Shown: positions 13,884-24,285 of the stretch, one piece after another
How the letters are laid out: each line of letters starts with the position of its first letter
Numbering within the stretch: position 1 is the first letter of the stretch
IMG/VR virus record: IMGVR_UViG_3300020707_000020
Location: 1-24,604 of that record
DNA length: 24,604 nt
Strand: one strand, 5' to 3'
Origin: a virus
Taxonomy: Duplodnaviria > Caudoviricetes
Notes under the pieces: generated by a model
The model's database searches: none
What the model was told of the DNA's origin: nothing
What the model saw: only the letters and a program-made list of their open reading frames with translations
Made by a program: the position numbers and the translations under genes

Positions 13884-14138
13884 TTTTTTTTGGGGTGGAC
13901 TCGGAAGGGGGTGCACACCTCACCGTACTCATGCCCAACTCAAAGGGCAAACAGTCATCGTGCAATCGTTTAATCTATCCCGATCCCAAATGATCTAACC
14001 AGGCTCTAGGTTATATCTATGGGCATCTCAGAGCGTACCCGTACCCCTATTTAGAATTGATAAGAGCGCACGATGTGCAAACCTACCCGCCTTTAATCTT
14101 ACCCTACGCCTTATCTATATATCTACTTACTAAGATCC

Positions 14139-14289
14139 TAGATGATCTATAGACAATAGATGATAGCTATATACACTATATAGACTATAGACAATCTAAA
14201 TATAGATATTATAGATATGCGACATCTTACCATAGCTATAGACTATTGACAATAAAACAACAATTAAAAAATACAATGGTATAGTCTAA
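14139..14289. repeat. Cluster of short CTATAGAC/TATAGA repeats
   Basis: CTATAGAC occurs at 14147, 14185 and 14236 (CTATAGACAAT exact twice). Variants occur at 14167, 14178, 14201, 14210 and 14243, TAGATGAT at 14139 and 14157, and an inverted TATAGTCTA at 14280. Confidence 0.75.
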
Positions 14290-14307: not shown

Positions 14308-14362
14308 CATATCTATGCAGTAAAGCATTACACTTAAAACCTAACTACTAAGAGGATATACC

Positions 14363-15238
14363 ATGCAAAATACTACAAGCCGTATCAGCGTATATGACAG
14401 CGTTACTAATAAGATCATCTCTCAACTTGAGAGCGGGATAGCACCTTGGATCAAGCCTTGGAAATCTGGTCAAGCTGGCGGAGCTGATCGCAATATCGTA
14501 TCTAAAAAAGAGTATTCAGGCGTTAACCGTTTAATTCTAGGTATGAGCGGTTACAGCTCACCTATTTGGGGATCATTCAAACAATGGCAGGAATTAGGCG
14601 GGAATGTCAGAAAAGGTGAAAAGGGTACGCAAGTAGTTTTCTATTCACAAGTGACTAAAGGTGAGATAAAGCCAACTGATCTGAACCCTGATAAATCTAC
14701 CTATGCACTTCTCAAGTCTTATTATGTTTTTAACTTGGATCAGATTGATGGATTAGAAATAAGCAAACCAGAGCCAGTAATCTCCACCTTTAATCCAGTA
14801 CCCGCTTTAGATGATCGCATTATTAAGACTGGCGCTCAGATCTCTCATGGCGGAGGCAGGGCATTTTATCGCCCTGGTACTGACAGCATTACCTTACCAG
14901 CTAGAGATCTATTCCTAAGTGAAAGCCACTACTATGCGACTGTATTGCATGAGTTAACTCATTGGTCAGGCGCTGAGCATCGTTTAGATCGTACAAAAGG
15001 CAAACGGTTTGCTGATACAGCGTACGCATTTGAGGAGCTGGTTGCTGAAATGGGCGCTGCATTTTTATGCGCTGATTATGGTATCCAGGGTGAGCTGCAG
15101 CACGCTGACTACATCGGCAATTGGCTACAGTGCCTTAAAAATGACAATAAAGCAATTTTTAACGCTGCAGCATTGGCACAAAAGGCAGCCGATTACATAA
15201 ACAATCTAGATGCACTGACTAACCAGGCAGCAGCTTAA
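14363..15238 (+). CDS. ardC: ArdC-family ssDNA-binding antirestriction protein with zincin-like metallopeptidase domain
   Basis: VTNKIISQLESGIAPWIKPW, YSGVNRLIL, WGSFKQWQELGGNVRKGEKG, YYVFNLDQIDGL, HELTHW (HExxH) and YAFEELVAEMGAAFLC. Confidence 0.92.
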   Translation: MQNTTSRISVYDSVTNKIISQLESGIAPWIKPWKSGQAGGADRNIVSKKEYSGVNRLILGMSGYSSPIWGSFKQWQELGGNVRKGEKGTQVVFYSQVTKGEIKPTDLNPDKSTYALLKSYYVFNLDQIDGLEISKPEPVISTFNPVPALDDRIIKTGAQISHGGGRAFYRPGTDSITLPARDLFLSESHYYATVLHELTHWSGAEHRLDRTKGKRFADTAYAFEELVAEMGAAFLCADYGIQGELQHADYIGNWLQCLKNDNKAIFNAAALAQKAADYINNLDALTNQAAA

Positions 15239-15289: not shown

Positions 15290-15321
15290 AGACAGTCAAA
15301 ACCTAACTAATTGGAGGATTT

Positions 15322-15522
15322 ATGGATCAAGTAAGAGCCGATATAAAACTATCAACTGGCAGGATAGTAAAACATACTAGGCAGGAAAATGGATCACAAC
15401 TTGCAACACCTACACCAGGATGCTATGAAATGACTAACCAGGAATGGATAGAGTATTGCAAGATCATCAATGGGGGATATATTCCACGATACCCCATGCA
15501 AGGAGAGGATCTAACAGCATGA
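15322..15522 (+). CDS. Hypothetical early protein
   Basis: 66 aa with a GGAGG SD preceded by AACCTAACTA. Confidence 0.75.
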   Translation: MDQVRADIKLSTGRIVKHTRQENGSQLATPTPGCYEMTNQEWIEYCKIINGGYIPRYPMQGEDLTA

Positions 15523-15695: not shown

Positions 15696-15824
15696 AGCGA
15701 TTAAAGGGTTTAGTGGTATTAGGTATCACTTACCCTTATTTATCGCCTTGGCGCTTGTTTTAAAGTGTTTTAAATTGATTTTATGTATTTGTCTTACCTA
15801 ACCTAACTAATTTTCGAGGTATTT

Positions 15825-15983
15825 ATGAGAAATAATGATATTTATACAATTGATCGCAAAATCTTTATAAAGAAGAAATATTCCCTCATGCGTGTGCAAG
15901 GGGTAATCAGTAAAGATCAGTTAATTGACTTAGTAGCTGTATTTGGTGGTTTGCTACTGGTTTGGTTATTGTTGGCTTTGTAA
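15825..15983 (+). CDS. 52-aa protein with C-terminal transmembrane helix
   Basis: GAGGT SD preceded by AACCTAACTA. It reads MRNNDIYTIDRKIFIKKKYSLMRVQGVISKDQLIDLVAVFGGLLLVWLLLAL. Confidence 0.7.
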   Translation: MRNNDIYTIDRKIFIKKKYSLMRVQGVISKDQLIDLVAVFGGLLLVWLLLAL

Positions 15984-16322: not shown

Positions 16323-16918
16323 ATGCGTGTTTTAGTAGCGTGCGAGTTTAGCGGAACAGTAAGAGATGCGTTTATAAGAGCAGGTCATACCGCTTTATCT
16401 TGCGATCTTATGCCAACTGATAAACCAGGACCACACTATCAAGGTGATGTTATGGACATCATTGGGGGGGGTGGGATTTGATGATAGCTCACCCGCCTTG
16501 CACGCATTTGGCAGTATCAGGTGCTAGGCATTTTGAAAAGAAAAGGGCAGATGGAAGGCAGCAGGAGGGAATTGATTTCTTTATGGCATTAGCTAGAGCA
16601 GCCATTCCCCGTTACGCAATAGAGAACCCTATAGGAATTATGAGCAATATTTGGAGAAAACCCGATCAAATTATTCAACCTTGGCAATATGGGCATAGTG
16701 TTACAAAATCCACTTGCTTGTGGCTTAAAGGGCTGCCAGCTCTTACGCCTACGGATATAGTCGATAAAGGGGTAACTTGGACAGCCAAAAGCGGTAAAAG
16801 AATGTCGCAGTGGTATTACGACAGTAGTTGTTTAAATCCTAAAGAAAGGGAAAAGATGAGAAACAAAACATTTCAAGGTATAGCAGATGCTATGGCACAA
16901 CAATGGGGGATTTTATGA
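16323..16918 (+). pseudogene. Phage C5-cytosine DNA methyltransferase-like gene, frameshifted at a G8 tract (16464-16471)
   Basis: AAGGAG SD, then MRVLVACEFSGTVRDAF...GDVMDII, which stops at 16481. The downstream frame has WDLMIAHPPCTHL (PC motif IV) and AIENP (motif VI). One extra G joins them into 198 aa. Confidence 0.75.
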
Positions 16919-17103: not shown

Positions 17104-17149
17104 TCTATCTGTAGTAACTGAAACCCTAACTATTTAATAAGGAATAATC

Positions 17150-17362
17150 ATGGAATATTGCGTTAATTGCAAACACCTAGACCACTCGACACTTTCGTGT
17201 GCGAAAAGCTCAACAATAAGCCTAGTAACAGGCAAAGCGCTATACAGTAGCGCATATCTATATCGTCAAGACGAGCATTATTGCGGTAAAGATGGCAAAT
17301 GGTTTGAATTTATGGAAACTGAAGATCTTGACGATCTCTCAGCAATCCCTTTTGGTAAATAA
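17150..17362 (+). CDS. Small Cys-rich (putative Zn-binding) protein with acidic IPF tail
   Basis: CVNCKH...C...C, ending EDLDDLSAIPFGK; TAAGGA SD. Confidence 0.75.
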   Translation: MEYCVNCKHLDHSTLSCAKSSTISLVTGKALYSSAYLYRQDEHYCGKDGKWFEFMETEDLDDLSAIPFGK

Positions 17363-17382
17363 CCTATCTAATGGAGTTAATC

Positions 17383-17652
17383 ATGGCAAAAACACCAAGC
17401 AGTAAGAATAAACCTAAGACACCTTTTCCAGTGAAGGCAGTTGATAAGAAGATCAATGATGCTTACACCAAAAAAGAAGTAGATCGTCTTAAAAACCTAG
17501 TCGCAAGGCAAGATGACCTTATAGCTCAGATGCTAGATGAGTTAAAACAAGAGCAGATCAAAACTGGCATGCTAGGTCAAGAGTTAGAAGATCTAGAAGA
17601 TGAGATCGACAGTTGGAAAGAGATTGTTAAAACCATTATGGAGGTGGTATGA
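17383..17652 (+). CDS. Coiled-coil hypothetical protein
   Basis: The start was moved to ATG 17383 based on the GGAG SD. Confidence 0.7.
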   Translation: MAKTPSSKNKPKTPFPVKAVDKKINDAYTKKEVDRLKNLVARQDDLIAQMLDELKQEQIKTGMLGQELEDLEDEIDSWKEIVKTIMEVV

Positions 17653-18836: not shown

Positions 18837-19248
18837 TATTCCAGAATATGAATATTTGTATGCTGTAACTGTTCAAGGTTTGATATGGTCTTATCCCAAT
18901 AAAATACATGAAGGAAGGTATTTAAAACCTTGCAAAACAAGAAACGGGTATTTTCAAGTTGTTTTATCTAAAGAAGGTAAGACTAAAAAGTTTTATGTTC
19001 ATCGCCTGGTTGCACAAGTTTATCTTTTGCAAGACGAAAAAAGACTTCATGTGAATCATAAAGATGGGGATAAATTAAATAATTGGGTTAGCAATCTTGA
19101 ATGGGTAACGCCATCCGAAAATAAGCAGCACGCATTTAAGACTGGATTAACAAAGATGAAGCCTTCACAAATTGAGGCATCAAGACGCAATATTACGCAT
19201 TACAACCTAACTAAAGGAAAAAATCATGTCCAACATAATCCCGTTTGA
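18829..19248 (+). CDS. NUMOD4-HNH homing endonuclease-like protein
   Basis: RDIPEYEYLYAVTVQGLIWS (NUMOD4-like), VHRLVA, and VNHKDGDKLNNWVSNLEWVTPSEN. Confidence 0.9.
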   Translation: MRDIPEYEYLYAVTVQGLIWSYPNKIHEGRYLKPCKTRNGYFQVVLSKEGKTKKFYVHRLVAQVYLLQDEKRLHVNHKDGDKLNNWVSNLEWVTPSENKQHAFKTGLTKMKPSQIEASRRNITHYNLTKGKNHVQHNPV

Positions 19249-20050
19249 CGAGAAAGTTAAATTAGCAGAGGCGTTTGCCAAGTCCAAGTTATTTGGAATG
19301 ACTGATGCAAACCAAGTATTAGCTCTCATGGCAGTTTGTGAGGCAGAGGGTATTCATCCCGCTAAAGCAGTTCAGGAATACCATGTTATCCAAGGCAGAC
19401 CAGCATTGAAGGCTGATGCGATGCTTGCCCGTTTCCAAAATGCAGGTGGCAAAGTCGAATGGAAGGAGTACACAGATGAGCAAGTTACAGGAGTTTTTTC
19501 ACATCCCAACGGGGGTAACCTTGCGGTTACATGGACCATTGGACAAGCCACCAAAATTGGTCTTGTTAAACCAGGAAGCGGATGGCAAAAGTTTCCCAGA
19601 GCGATGCTCAGAAGCCGTTGTATTTCAGAGGGGATTAGATCAGTTTTCCCTGGATCTGTTACGGGGTTCTACTCGCCAGATGAAGTCGAAAACTTCGAAA
19701 CCCAGACCGCCAAGCCTACCGTATTAAAAGACATGGGATCAGTCATTCCTAGCGTAGTGGATCTTTCCGCTATTCCTGATGACATCCCTGATATGGCATT
19801 GCCGATGTATGTTCCTGGTAATGATGTTCCGTATGCGCATTATGTTTGTAAAGATGATTGGATTGATGGTTTCGCAGAGATGCACGCCAAGATCCATGAA
19901 TCAAGCAAGATGACACCAGAGGAAAAGTTCTCCAAGATAAAGGCATTTAGAGATGTCAATGAAGCCTATACAAAAACATTTGACGGCAATACTACAGCGA
20001 AGTTCTTATCAAAACTCCAAGCAATTAGAAAGGAAATCAACAATGGCTAA
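19226..20050 (+). CDS. RecT/Red-beta-like single-strand annealing protein
   Basis: YHVIQGRPALKADAMLA...WQKFPRAMLRSRCISEGIRSVFP...GFYSPDE; paired with the YqaJ exonuclease. Confidence 0.75.
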   Translation: MSNIIPFDEKVKLAEAFAKSKLFGMTDANQVLALMAVCEAEGIHPAKAVQEYHVIQGRPALKADAMLARFQNAGGKVEWKEYTDEQVTGVFSHPNGGNLAVTWTIGQATKIGLVKPGSGWQKFPRAMLRSRCISEGIRSVFPGSVTGFYSPDEVENFETQTAKPTVLKDMGSVIPSVVDLSAIPDDIPDMALPMYVPGNDVPYAHYVCKDDWIDGFAEMHAKIHESSKMTPEEKFSKIKAFRDVNEAYTKTFDGNTTAKFLSKLQAIRKEINNG

Positions 20051-20319: not shown

Positions 20320-20466
20320 ATGAAAAAATTTGTTATTGCTTATGTAATATCTTTACTTTTTGTAACCAGCGTGTTTGCAGCCACAAAATGTGAGCGTGAC
20401 ATCAATGGTGGTGTTTGCTGCTGGGATACCAATACCGAAGGACCATTTAAACCAATTAACTGCTGA
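20320..20466 (+). CDS. Small exported Cys-rich peptide with Sec signal peptide
   Basis: AAGGAG SD; reads MKKFVIAYVISLLFVTSVFA|ATKCERDINGGVCCWDTNTEGPFKPINC. Confidence 0.75.
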   Translation: MKKFVIAYVISLLFVTSVFAATKCERDINGGVCCWDTNTEGPFKPINC

Positions 20467-20849
20467 TGATTTACATAAACTTACCTTACCCGCCATCAAT
20501 CAATAACTATTGGATTGCTAGTGGGCATCGTAGGTTTATAAGCCAACGGGGAAGGGATTTTAAGAATCATGTTGCAGAATATTGTGCGGAATGGCGTGTA
20601 CCTAAGTTTGGAGATGCTCCCATGTGGGTTGAAATCGTCTTACATCCAAGATCCAAAAAACTCATGGATATTGACAACTGTATTAAGCCCATTTTGGATG
20701 CCTTACAAGATGCTGGAGTTTTCGATGACGATTGCCAGGTACAACGGGTATCTATTACAAGAGGTGTGCCGAAAAAGGGTGGCGGTTGTGTAGTCATGCT
20801 TGATCGGATGGAGGATCACTCCGCAAGCTCAGATGCGAATTTGGCGTAA
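20466..20849 (+). CDS. rusA: RusA-family Holliday junction resolvase
   Basis: LPYPPSINNYW and DIDNCIKPILDALQDAGVFDDDCQV. Confidence 0.92.
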   Translation: MIYINLPYPPSINNYWIASGHRRFISQRGRDFKNHVAEYCAEWRVPKFGDAPMWVEIVLHPRSKKLMDIDNCIKPILDALQDAGVFDDDCQVQRVSITRGVPKKGGGCVVMLDRMEDHSASSDANLA

Positions 20850-20907
20850 ATTAGCCAGATAGTTAGGTGGGCTACGGTGAGGGTCTTTTTGAGCAGCTCA
20901 CCACTAT
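20822..20907 (+). ncRNA. Candidate small structured RNA carrying the complement (TAGTTAGGT) of the early-gene leader motif
   Basis: Hairpins CGCA/TGCG, TTTGGC/GCCAGA, and either ATAGT-GGTGGGCT/AGCTCACC-ACTAT or GGTGAG/CTCACC. TAGTTAGGT lies at 20860-20868. Confidence 0.4.
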
Positions 20908-20921
20908 TTATGGGGATAAAT

Positions 20922-21008: not shown

Positions 21009-21277
21009 CAGTCGCTCAGACTTCGATTAACGCTTATAAAGAACATAGGGCTAGTGGCAAAGTAGGCGCACAAGCTAAAGCCATATTGGACTTTATGAAC
21101 CTTGGTGAGAGTTATTCACGCAGAGAGCTTCATGTTTTAACTGGATTAGAGTTAAGTTCAATTTGCGGTAGGGTCAATGAATTACTAGAGATGGGGATGC
21201 TTAAGGAAGGATCTAAGCGCAAATGTATGGTTACTAAAAAGACGGTTTCACCTGTTATTAAGGATTCGTTGTTTTAA
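21005..21277 (+). CDS. Winged-helix DNA-binding protein
   Basis: AILDFM...SRRELHVLTGLELSSICGRVNELLEMGML; AAGGAG SD before ATG 21005. Confidence 0.75.
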   Translation: MTVAQTSINAYKEHRASGKVGAQAKAILDFMNLGESYSRRELHVLTGLELSSICGRVNELLEMGMLKEGSKRKCMVTKKTVSPVIKDSLF

Positions 21278-21894
21278 TGAAAAATTGCGCAAAAGAAGAT
21301 TTGATTGCGTTTGAGAAAGCGGTAGCATCTCATTGGGAAGCGGGAGATTTACCCTACCTCATTCACCTATCAGGCGGTAATGAGGATTTTTTGATTGACT
21401 TGTTCAAGGAGATTAAAGATGGAGATTGGATTTTCAGCACTCATCGGAATCACCATCACGCTCTATTGGCTGGAATACCCGCAAATGAGCTTATGGCAAG
21501 CATTTTGGATGGCGATTCTATGTTTATTTTCGACAATAACCGTCACTTTTTTACTTCGAGCATTTTATCTGGCACTTGCGCTATTGCAACAGGTCTGGCT
21601 TATGCTTTAAAAGAAGAAGGTAGCTCTAGTAGGGTCTGGTGTTTCTTAGGTGATGGTGCAGAAGAACAAGGACACTTCTATGAGGCGGTAATGATGGTCC
21701 AAGGACATGATCTACCTTGTACATTTATTATTGAAGATAACAACCGTAGCGTAGATTCAACGCTAGAGGAACGCTTACCTTATCAGTTTAGGTTTAGGCT
21801 GCCAGGATGCGTAATCCGCAACAACTACGATCCTACCTATCCTCATGCTGGCAACGGCACTAAAAAGCATATTGTTTTTAAGGATGTTAAATGA
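21277..21894 (+). CDS. TPP-dependent dehydrogenase E1 alpha-like subunit (short)
   Basis: HLSGGNE, FSTHRNHHHALLAG, and the TPP motif GDGAEEQG...FIIEDNN. Only 205 aa. Confidence 0.88.
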   Translation: MKNCAKEDLIAFEKAVASHWEAGDLPYLIHLSGGNEDFLIDLFKEIKDGDWIFSTHRNHHHALLAGIPANELMASILDGDSMFIFDNNRHFFTSSILSGTCAIATGLAYALKEEGSSSRVWCFLGDGAEEQGHFYEAVMMVQGHDLPCTFIIEDNNRSVDSTLEERLPYQFRFRLPGCVIRNNYDPTYPHAGNGTKKHIVFKDVK

Positions 21895-22406
21895 GCTACA
21901 AGGATGAGCTTACTAAAGCCAATACCAAATTAGCCCAAAACCCTCAAGTGCGTTTTATTGGCTATGGTCTTAAAAAAGGCAGAGCATTAGGTACGCTAAA
22001 AGAAGTGGCAGATAGTCAGATTATTGAGATGCCTGTAGCAGAGAACCTGATGATGGGGTTTGCAATAGGACTATCACTCAAGGGATACCTCCCAGTGGTC
22101 TTTATTGAGCGTATGGACTTCTTAATGAACGCAATGGATGCAATGGTCAACCATTTAGACAAAATAGCCAAAATCTCTCATGGTGAGTTCCACCCAAAAG
22201 TCATTATTCGTTGCATTGTGGGCAATACCAAGAAGCCTCTTTATACAGGCGCTACTCATACTCAAGATTTAACCGAAGGAATACGCCAAATGGTGAGCTT
22301 TCCTGTGTGGAAAATGAAAGATGAGGGTGATATTGAAGTGTTTTATGACCTTGCCAGCAAGACTTTTGATTCCGTAATGTTGGTCGAATATAAGGATTTA
22401 GCGTGA
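21891..22406 (+). CDS. TPP-dependent E1 beta/transketolase pyrimidine-binding domain (no C-terminal domain)
   Basis: IIEMPVAENLMMGFAIGLSLKGYLPVV..ERMDFLMNAMDAMVNH and GATHTQD. 171 aa. Confidence 0.88.
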   Translation: MSYKDELTKANTKLAQNPQVRFIGYGLKKGRALGTLKEVADSQIIEMPVAENLMMGFAIGLSLKGYLPVVFIERMDFLMNAMDAMVNHLDKIAKISHGEFHPKVIIRCIVGNTKKPLYTGATHTQDLTEGIRQMVSFPVWKMKDEGDIEVFYDLASKTFDSVMLVEYKDLA

Positions 22407-23497
22407 AAAGCAATAAATATAGCGATTTTAAGATCTTTCATCATCCAGAAAAGCTGATTTCTTTTGGGGCGGGGAAGGTTACTGCACCTGTGTATGTTCG
22501 GGTCAAGCCAATTAACCTTTGTAATCACGGATGTTTCTTTTGCGTGTATAGCACTGGTTTTAGAGTAAAAGACGGTGGAGAAGAAGAACACATCGTTAGC
22601 GGTATGCACGAGGACATGAAGGAAGATGACATCATCCCTAGAGATAAGATGATTGAGATCTTGCATGACCTAGCCAACATGGGTACTAAAGCTATTACAT
22701 GGAGTGGGGGTGGAGAGCCATTGATGCACCCTGATATAGCAGACTTCATGCGCTTAACATTAGCTCTCAAGATGGACCTATCCATCATCACCAATGGTCA
22801 GAACCTAGTTAAAGAAAAAGCGGAAGTCTTAGCCAAAGCCAAGTGGGTGCGTGTATCAATGGATTACACCAATGGCGAGGAAATGAAGCGGTTTAGGAAT
22901 GTGCCAGAAAAGAGTTTTGATAGCATCATCCGCAATCTAAGAGGTTTTGCGGGAATGAAAGATGCGGGATGTGATCTGGCTGTTAATTATATTGTGCATC
23001 GCAACAATTACAAAAATCTTGGGGGACTAACCCAGTTATTAAAAGATAGCGGTGTTGAAAATGTGCGTTTCAGTCCAATGTATGTACCAGACTTTTATGA
23101 ATACCATAAACCGATAGCAGAGGAAGTTAATGAACAGCTTAAAAACATTCAAAAGATATGTGATGATCGCTTTACTGTTAACAGCACTTACAACATTACT
23201 CCTGGGAGTAGTCACTCTCATACTAGAAGCTATCACAAGTGCTTCATTATGCAGACCGTACCCGTCATCGGTGCAGACCTCAATGTATATGCTTGTCATA
23301 ACAAAGCCTACGATAAGTCAGGATGTATAGGATCTATCAAAGACAGTAGCTTTCATAGGCTATGGTTTAGCCCTGAAACACAAGCCTATATGGACAAATT
23401 CAATGCTAAGACCACTTGTATGCACGAGTGTTCTAACGACAGAAAGAACATATTGATTAACGAAGTCATTAACGCTAGTACCGACAACTTTATTTAA
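22403..23497 (+). CDS. Radical SAM enzyme with SPASM/Twitch-like domain
   Basis: CNHGCFFC, SGGGEPLMHP and ITNG. The C-terminus reads CFIM...GADLNVYAC...IGSIKDSSFHRLW...CMHEC. GTG start. Confidence 0.92.
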   Translation: MKSNKYSDFKIFHHPEKLISFGAGKVTAPVYVRVKPINLCNHGCFFCVYSTGFRVKDGGEEEHIVSGMHEDMKEDDIIPRDKMIEILHDLANMGTKAITWSGGGEPLMHPDIADFMRLTLALKMDLSIITNGQNLVKEKAEVLAKAKWVRVSMDYTNGEEMKRFRNVPEKSFDSIIRNLRGFAGMKDAGCDLAVNYIVHRNNYKNLGGLTQLLKDSGVENVRFSPMYVPDFYEYHKPIAEEVNEQLKNIQKICDDRFTVNSTYNITPGSSHSHTRSYHKCFIMQTVPVIGADLNVYACHNKAYDKSGCIGSIKDSSFHRLWFSPETQAYMDKFNAKTTCMHECSNDRKNILINEVINASTDNFI

Positions 23498-23505
23498 GGA
23501 AAATC

Positions 23506-24285
23506 ATGGCAACTAAGAAGAAGGCAGTATCAAAAGAACCCGTACAACCGATTATTTTTATTGCCACCCCCATGTATGGCGGTATGTGCGCTGGCTTTTA
23601 CACTCAGTCGATATTGCAATCCATTAGCGTATTAAGCCAAGCGGGAATCCAAACTCAGTTTAGCTTTATGTTTAACGAGAGCTTGATTACTAGGGCTAGA
23701 AACGCTTTAGCGCATACTTTCTTGAAGTCCAACTCTACCCATTTGATGTTTATTGATGCAGACATCAAATTCAGACCAGAGGACATTGTGAGAATGATCC
23801 AAGCTGATAAAGACATCATCTGCGGTATCTACCCTAAAAAAGAGATCAATTGGAATAGCACCAAGCAAGCAATGGATGCAGGTGTTCCTAATGACCAGTT
23901 AAAGAGCCATACAGGAAGTTTTGTAGTTAACCTAGTTGACTATGCGGGTGAAGTTACTGTTCCCATAGATCAACCAGTAGAGATCTTTAATGGCGGTACT
24001 GGCTTTATGTTGATTAAACGCAAGGTGTTTGAGAAGCTCAAGAAAAAAGTACCTTCTTACACCAATGATGTAGGAGATCTTTCAGGTCAGTTAAATCACG
24101 CAGAGCAGATCCATGAATACTTTGCTACCTCGATTGAACCTGATAGCAATCGCTTGCTTTCAGAGGATTATCACTTTTGCCGTATTTGGAGATTAGCGGG
24201 TGGAAAAGTGTTTGCAGCGCCTTGGGCTAACTTAGGACATTTAGGAAGCTACTTGTTTGAAGGGCAACTTACTCCAGCGCCTTGA
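23506..24285 (+). CDS. GT-A fold glycosyltransferase-like phage protein
   Basis: IFIATPMYGG, ESLITRARN, the DxD motif LMFIDADIKF, GTGFMLIKRKVF and LSEDYHFC. Confidence 0.75.
   Translation: MATKKKAVSKEPVQPIIFIATPMYGGMCAGFYTQSILQSISVLSQAGIQTQFSFMFNESLITRARNALAHTFLKSNSTHLMFIDADIKFRPEDIVRMIQADKDIICGIYPKKEINWNSTKQAMDAGVPNDQLKSHTGSFVVNLVDYAGEVTVPIDQPVEIFNGGTGFMLIKRKVFEKLKKKVPSYTNDVGDLSGQLNHAEQIHEYFATSIEPDSNRLLSEDYHFCRIWRLAGGKVFAAPWANLGHLGSYLFEGQLTPAP

Follow-up and report, generated by a model that had tools for sequence, protein, structure and literature searches.

Comparative analyses give good support to a new family of phage RNAs encoded across the rusA stop codon, with a predicted double-pseudoknot fold and a single-stranded seed complementary to a tag found upstream of several early genes. 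These are probably (at about 0.6) stable, trans-acting RNAs that repress early translation by seed-tag pairing, the direction of the effect being proposed by analogy. The class of mechanism is known; what is new is the fold and the regulon-wide re-targeting. The RNA that we analysed lies in a 24.6-kb piece (24,604 nucleotides, hereafter the window) of the genome of an uncultured tailed phage. A sequence-only reading of the window had proposed a candidate trans-acting RNA controlling early genes, and the covariation of seed and tag, the placement of the tags before early, uncoupled genes and the joint loss of RNA and tag support that proposal.

The window is identical to a 35.3-kb record over 13,139 of 13,139 compared bases. 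Its minus strand carries the structural genes, and its plus strand, from 14363 on, codes for anti-restriction, methyltransferase, RecE-like, HNH, RecT-like, SSB and RusA proteins and a modification block, identified by PHROGs matches. No tyrosine integrase (PF00589) and no HTH_3 repressor domain (PF01381) scored over the cut-off in the genomes of five relatives (35-37 kb, four of them rated at least 99% complete). There was no cultured relative among the GenBank phages searched, and the genome contigs searched for a prophage or host yielded only two short MAG fragments of close relatives.

Other features of the window were noted. The block downstream of the RNA (21277-24285) comprises a pair of genes that each match one half of PHROG 34187, a radical SAM gene and a glycosyltransferase-like gene; it is devoid of the tag and differs between relatives. 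The DNA methyltransferase (PHROG 757, 16323-16918) is in two frames, with the break just after a run of eight G (16464-16471). The split is identical in a relative (L002) and is possibly controlled by slippage. Between the divergent early and late arms, the 14110-14260 region harbours AT-rich, degenerate, origin-like repeats, and AT-repeat tracts are similarly placed in two relatives (L096 and L040).

A predicted double-pseudoknot RNA behind rusA

Using RusA searches, 244 loci were collected at 50% identity or more; the element was found behind rusA in 219, was absent from 22 and was cut in three. All but two of the 219 parse into a single order of parts, as 35 distinct sequences: the P1 hairpin with its 8-nt loop, an optional hairpin H2, the seed, P2a, 1-3 nt, P3a, P2b, 1-2 nt, a 7-nt strand pairing with the P1 loop, 1-2 nt and P3b. 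P2 and P3 form an H-type pseudoknot, and its long loop pairs with the P1 loop to make a second one. Both pseudoknots were absent from the sequence-only reading, which had described two small hairpins corresponding to P1 and H2. Both hairpins are present, but they are not intergenic as it had them, since rusA extends to 20849 and the first hairpin and half of the second are thus coding; the true gap after rusA is 20850-20921. The coordinates are collected in Table 1.

Table 1. Predicted RNA, its parts and its target sites, in positions of the window
Feature	Positions	Strand	Evidence or predicted pairing
rusA Holliday-junction resolvase gene	20466..20849	+	PHROG 34, E 2e-30; last codons form the 5' domain of the RNA
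Predicted double-pseudoknot RNA core, 81 nt	20822..20902	+	topology common to 217/219 seed-classified loci; covariation
P1 hairpin, stem 20822-25/20834-37, 8-nt loop 20826-33	20822..20837	+
H2 spacer hairpin, 6 bp, contains rusA stop 20847-49	20840..20859	+
Single-stranded seed UAGUUAGGU	20860..20868	+	8 seed columns invariant in 23/23 clade-A sequences
P2 helix 20869-73/20882-86, stem 1 of H-type pseudoknot	20869..20886	+	5/5 pairs in 47/47
P3 helix 20876-81/20897-902, stem 2 of H-type pseudoknot	20876..20902	+	parse and covariation
3' strand of 7-bp pseudoknot helix with P1 loop (20827-33)	20888..20894	+	7/7 pairs in 47/47
Target site before anti-restriction gene 14363-15238	14339..14347	+	9 bp, -11.9 kcal/mol
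Target site before ORF 15322-15522	15301..15309	+	9 bp, -12.2 kcal/mol
Target site before ORF 15825-15983	15801..15809	+	9 bp, -12.2 kcal/mol
Target site before small Cys-rich ORF 17150-17362	17125..17132	+	8 bp, -10.2 kcal/mol
Weaker one-mismatch site before ORF 17383-17652	17362..17370	+	-8.3 kcal/mol
Target site before recT-like gene 19226-20050, within end of HNH gene	19205..19213	+	9 bp, -12.2 kcal/mol

Three controls matter here because our parser demands pairing. Firstly, in an alignment of 23 clade-A variants made from sequence only, H2, P3 and five pseudoknot pairs were paired in 385 of 385 cells and both sides changed in 11 of 17 pairs, with none of 500 shuffles as good and slid registers giving 20-38%; these counts are inflated by the relatedness of the sequences. 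Secondly, a descriptor recovered the 25 expected elements, all of them, in 1,086,268 bases (36 loci, both strands), along with 17 further matches at six places, 13 of which were in AT repeats. Thirdly, a pattern fixing only the 3' domain, with no use of rusA, gave 120 loci among viral contigs. The element was behind rusA in 111 of the 112 new loci examined, the last one being cut, although this control is only partly independent because the pattern came from earlier clades and many matches are on contigs already seen. In the 47 distinct sequences found without use of the loop, P2 and the upstream 7-mer were fully paired in every case, compared with 5 of 47 after shuffling. The comparisons support the folding of the 81-base sequence as a conserved double pseudoknot.

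The seed is the longest invariant run of the RNA in clade A. H2 is missing in clades B to E and is replaced by unrelated hairpins elsewhere, and it is therefore a spacer. The proposal of a two-state switch that exposes or sequesters the seed was not supported. The stem of the exposed state is 100% paired with compensatory changes, whereas the sequestering helix is not conserved: it is 71% paired, 21 of 500 shuffles were as high and a three-column slide reached 75%, no better than controls. The sequestered fold is energetically plausible in the window's own variant.

Other structural candidates were rejected. The single-sequence MFE fold (z -2.2) misses the pseudoknots and conflicts with the covariation. 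A small self-cleaving ribozyme (HDV-like, pistol or twister) would be expected neither from the Rfam searches, which gave no match, nor from the fold, which has no conserved unpaired core and freely varying linkers; its strand order differs from the HDV and pistol topologies. A minus-strand decoy RNA was discarded from the counts of G-U pairs, 75 of 630 helix pairs on the plus strand but only 2 on the minus strand (G-U versus A-C on the plus strand, 75 to 2), in a comparison where the parser itself favours plus-strand pairing. A general closing helix formed by the C-rich 5' flank with the next Shine-Dalgarno sequence (SD) was also rejected: it is not clade-specific, and although clades C and E have a strong one, it is weak in most clade-A members. 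Neither a conserved promoter nor a conserved terminator of its own was identified at the element when promoter-like and terminator-like sites were sought.

Individual loci displayed further variations. In L216 and L038, the C-rich 5' flank of the RNA can pair with the SD of the next gene, at -17.2 and -10.8 kcal/mol, respectively. The RNAs of L058-L061 and L120-L126 are identical to that of the window although their RusA proteins are only 78-79% identical to its RusA, which points to recombination within rusA, just ahead of the RNA. Three clade-D loci (L050-L052) have an extra insert of 70-100 nt with hairpins between the RNA and the next gene.

Its H-type pseudoknot, reminiscent of the T4 gene 32 operator (PMC3014915, in excerpt), raises the question of whether the tagged leaders are silenced or cleaved by a protein for which the RNA serves as guide or scaffold. 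This protein might be the phage SSB or RecT nucleating on the pseudoknot like T4 gp32, or a host nuclease or chaperone. Consistent with this, ssb and recT are in the same operon, and the RNA keeps its position in the loci collected independently of rusA. Nevertheless, the sequence of the scaffold is nearly free to vary, only the first A of loop 1 being constant, and that A was required by the parser. The genes downstream of the RNA also differ widely among relatives. These features make a protein guide quite unlikely.

Tags complementary to the seed in early leaders

The seed TAGTTAGGT is the exact reverse complement of the tag ACCTAACTA, and four exact copies of this tag are on the plus strand, all as first reported; one-mismatch copies start at 17124 and 17362. 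The 8-mer ACCTAACT occurs eight times, versus 0.77 expected, with eight or more in none of 100 shuffles; three copies are indeed inside late genes, as Pro-Asn codons. The 11-bp pairing with one G-U that had been proposed exists, but with 17125-17135 rather than 17124-17134, and it requires the opening of three pairs of the second hairpin, the free seed giving 8 bp there. The six tagged leaders form the six best seed duplexes among the 22 plus-strand leaders examined, at -8.3 to -12.2 kcal/mol, the next one being at -7.5. They precede the anti-restriction gene, small ORFs and recT, and the small Cys-rich ORF is the first of the recE-recT-ssb-rusA run.

In 229 non-redundant leaders of clade A, exact complements of the 7-mers starting at 20860 to 20862 number 43, 49 and 41, respectively, and same-sense copies are absent; every other RNA position has at most four leader complements, save for the overlapping 20859 (17). 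The seed is the sole segment of the RNA with a leader-enriched complement (49 complementary versus 0 same-sense copies). In a larger set, 75 of 317 early leaders but none of 76 late leaders harbour the tag; downstream of the RNA, only 1 of 50 leaders has it, and none of 19 next-gene leaders has its exact form. The distance from the end of the tag is 12-19 nt to the AUG in 70 of the 75 tagged early leaders and 0-9 nt to the SD in 73 of them. With translation starts called by an ATG-plus-SD rule made for this analysis, it is present at 61 of 140 starts after a gap of at least 25 nt, 10 of 37 after 5-24 nt and 2 of 122 coupled starts (p 1e-17). Thus, the tag marks starts that initiate independently, almost only those of translationally uncoupled early genes. 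Tagged leaders have SDs of ordinary strength (p 0.47 versus untagged) and are less structured than untagged ones (-4.1 versus -6.3 kcal/mol, p 1e-7).

This distribution bears on two other interpretations. The tag might be a protein-binding site in DNA or RNA (an operator, a promoter box or a Chi-like sequence), its reverse copy being another site or due to chance. A change of specificity of the protein would also make all copies covary, no bias towards G-U-compatible changes was seen among 11 near-matches at core positions (3 are wobble-compatible), and the three 8-mers in late genes are chance occurrences. However, the orientation is strict, the distance to the AUG is fixed, one site is within the HNH coding sequence, the single reverse copy is always in the unpaired slot of a covarying fold, and RNA and tag are lost jointly, making a protein site highly improbable. 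The RNA might also act only in cis, as a mid-transcript structure that pairs with leaders of the same mRNA, for which icaR offers a precedent (PMC3868564, in excerpt), or that gates the SD of the next gene once ribosomes have completed rusA. The rusA stop is within the RNA in 35 of 35 variants, and in several relatives the next gene comes with a partial tag or an anti-SD flank. Yet there is one seed per transcript for up to six sites over 6.5 kb, with terminator-like hairpins in between; next-gene leaders lack the exact tag; and the anti-SD flank pairs with its own SD no better than the flanks of other clades do. An action restricted to cis is therefore very unlikely.

Coordinated changes of seed and tag

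Covariation of the seed with the leader motif across related phages had been named as the decisive observation, and we found at least six seed types, each with matching tags. De novo enriched 6-mers in leaders match the clade's own seed, as the top-ranked ones in A, C, D and D2 and among the top two in B2; the match ranks sixth in E and is partial in B. At least seven consecutive pairs with the own seed are possible for 49 of 229 clade-A leaders versus 1.9 expected, and for 2/11, 6/59, 3/20, 3/11, 2/36 and 1/25 leaders in B2, C, D, D2, E and B, respectively, versus at most 0.3 expected in each; clade B is thus weakly enriched. Counts for leaders of one clade against the seed of another are 0-2, with the exceptions of A leaders with the overlapping B seed (8) and of D with D2, whose seeds have seven bases in common.

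We also compared the leaders orthologous to that of the small Cys-rich ORF in 34 phages that we chose as representatives, 29 of them with the RNA. In 25 of these 29, the leader pairs over 7-9 nt with the phage's own seed; in the remaining four (L051, L052, L214 and L220), two pair over 6 nt and two over 5 nt. The leaders of L092 and L096 differ by two bases only, matching the difference between their seeds. RecT, at 53% identity, led to a held-out phage in GenBank, MW202753.1. The fold is present there, at about 27754-27685, and its seed is changed; this seed has two exact 9-nt complements, both before genes.

This leader displays other peculiarities. In L193 and L197 it has tandem tags, the seed fitting the third copy best in the former and the first in the latter; tandem tags are a possible route to switch seeds without losing control. 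By eye, both early heads of the window share TATCT(AT)GYAGTA (14310-14322 and 17106-17116) just behind a -10-like hexamer, and every clade, RNA-less phages included, retains a GYAGT core at the orthologous leader. It may be a second conserved early signal, perhaps a transcription start.

The two RNA-less lineages have also lost the tag. In a RecE tree, RNA-less phages branch at two positions, one within the E lineage and the other next to D2. Sister-type tags occur in 0 of 15 and 0 of 38 of their leaders versus 3 of 36 and 3 of 11 in their sisters, which are small numbers. As a single-gene tree it is only a guide because the genomes are mosaic; it still implies six or more distinct seed states, each with tags to match. 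The model R1 detected no RNA elsewhere in G006 (complete), G007 and G008 or in 14 RNA-less loci, but it also misses the H2-bearing form of the window, so that a divergent copy is possible in RNA-less genomes; a descriptor search of these genomes gave borderline matches only. In the complete RNA-less genome G006, two early leaders (L362 1300-1330; L363 16005-16030) contain CTCAATCA, one wobble away from the clade-C tag.

Modes of action and relation to known RNAs

As tag and RNA change together, the RNA likely lowers the expression of early genes by base pairing. The tagged leaders, with their ordinary SDs and little structure, need no opening, which favours repression. We propose that transcription of the recE-recT-ssb-rusA message yields the RNA as its tail and that, with the stop codon inside it, the RNA would fold completely only after ribosomes have left rusA. 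The knot would resist exonucleases and outlive the decay of the recE-rusA message, and the RNA would thus accumulate. Its seed would dock on A/C-rich, unstructured leaders beside the SD and block 30S/S1 loading as GcvB does at yifK, where pairing immediately upstream of the SD represses (PMC3879156, in excerpt), and genes coupled behind each tagged start would be silenced along with it. Being made at the end of the operon that it controls, the RNA would exert a delayed negative feedback, which may time the early-to-late shift; it could also keep out phages of the same seed that arrive late. Phages need early shut-off, as exemplified by T4 RegB (PMC3014915, in excerpt). Counterpoints to repression are that the duplex of 8-9 bp is short and never covers the SD, and that two lineages do without the RNA. 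The weak enrichment in clade B, the four phages with pairing over 5-6 nt, the near-matches in which no wobble bias was seen and the failure to identify a conserved promoter or terminator at the element also count against it.

Conversely, the seed might tether the knot upstream of the SD to recruit ribosomal protein S1 or the 30S subunit, making the RNA a trans-acting enhancer. The sites flank the SD without covering it, the knot is more elaborate than steric blocking requires, and S1 has affinity for pseudoknots. This is unlikely all the same: tagged leaders are already unstructured with normal SDs, the anti-restriction gene would be needed before an RNA encoded 6.5 kb downstream accumulates, and repeated seed switching better fits an immunity-type escape. 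A re-programmable two-part device is a tentative possibility. The 8-9-nt guide, held taut between the kissing helix and the H-type pseudoknot, would dock beside the SD, bringing the knot to the ribosome (S1/30S) or a phage protein and turning the regulon on or off. Seed changes would then give co-infecting phages channels of their own. The literature searched showed no pseudoknot that is delivered in trans to activate or trap initiation.

Coming back to repression by pairing, the closest parallels are c4 RNA of P1/P7 (RF01695) and P4 CI, likewise structured phage RNAs that pair near ribosome-binding sites of their own mRNA. The kinship suggested at first is not supported: Rfam searches gave no match at the element, either in the window or in the loci of eight relatives, and RF01695 has no match at E<=1 in five genomes. 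C4 RNA is released from its precursor by RNase P; no conserved tRNA-like closing stem was seen around the RNA variants. In both systems, a short exposed segment changes with its target between relatives, and seed changes separate P1 from P7 (PMC12197685 and PMC6906374, both in excerpt). In contrast with c4, the RNA described here is a predicted double pseudoknot with one seed, encoded across the rusA stop, and has about six dispersed targets rather than the icd/ant antirepressor operon of a temperate phage; the five relatives' genomes yielded no integrase or repressor.

GcvB, a host sRNA, is about 200 nt long, has its own promoter and depends on Hfq. Like sRNAs of its type, the RNA has one conserved single-stranded seed complementary to several leaders, and it shares with GcvB a G/U-rich seed, many targets and A/C-rich sites immediately upstream of the SD (PMC3879156, in excerpt). 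It differs in having no Rfam match and a seed rewritten at least six times together with its targets. Control at early starts by T4 RegB is also post-transcriptional and the gene 32 operator is also a phage H-type pseudoknot (PMC3014915, in excerpt), but RegB is a protein nuclease that cuts the SD and the gene 32 knot controls a single gene, in cis. Similarly, the 3' region of the icaR transcript of Staphylococcus aureus pairs with a translation start (PMC3868564, in excerpt), but with the SD itself, at one site and in cis, unlike the multiple sites upstream of the SD found here. A catalogue of 10,000 phage candidates reports RNAs upstream of RusA in the part available (PMC10690425). We found no description of the RNA in the literature searched, and it may be an unnamed entry in the alignments of that catalogue.

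This compact family comes with unusually complete comparative evidence: both pseudoknots covary, seed and targets have been rewritten together at least six times, and RNA and tag have been lost jointly twice. Its natural seed/target pairs represent ready-made compensatory mutants, and its scaffold of 60-80 nt with a replaceable seed could be of use in synthetic translation control. It extends C4-type logic from one operon to a regulon. How small phages with no recognizable repressor time their early genes is poorly known, and this RNA family bears on that question.
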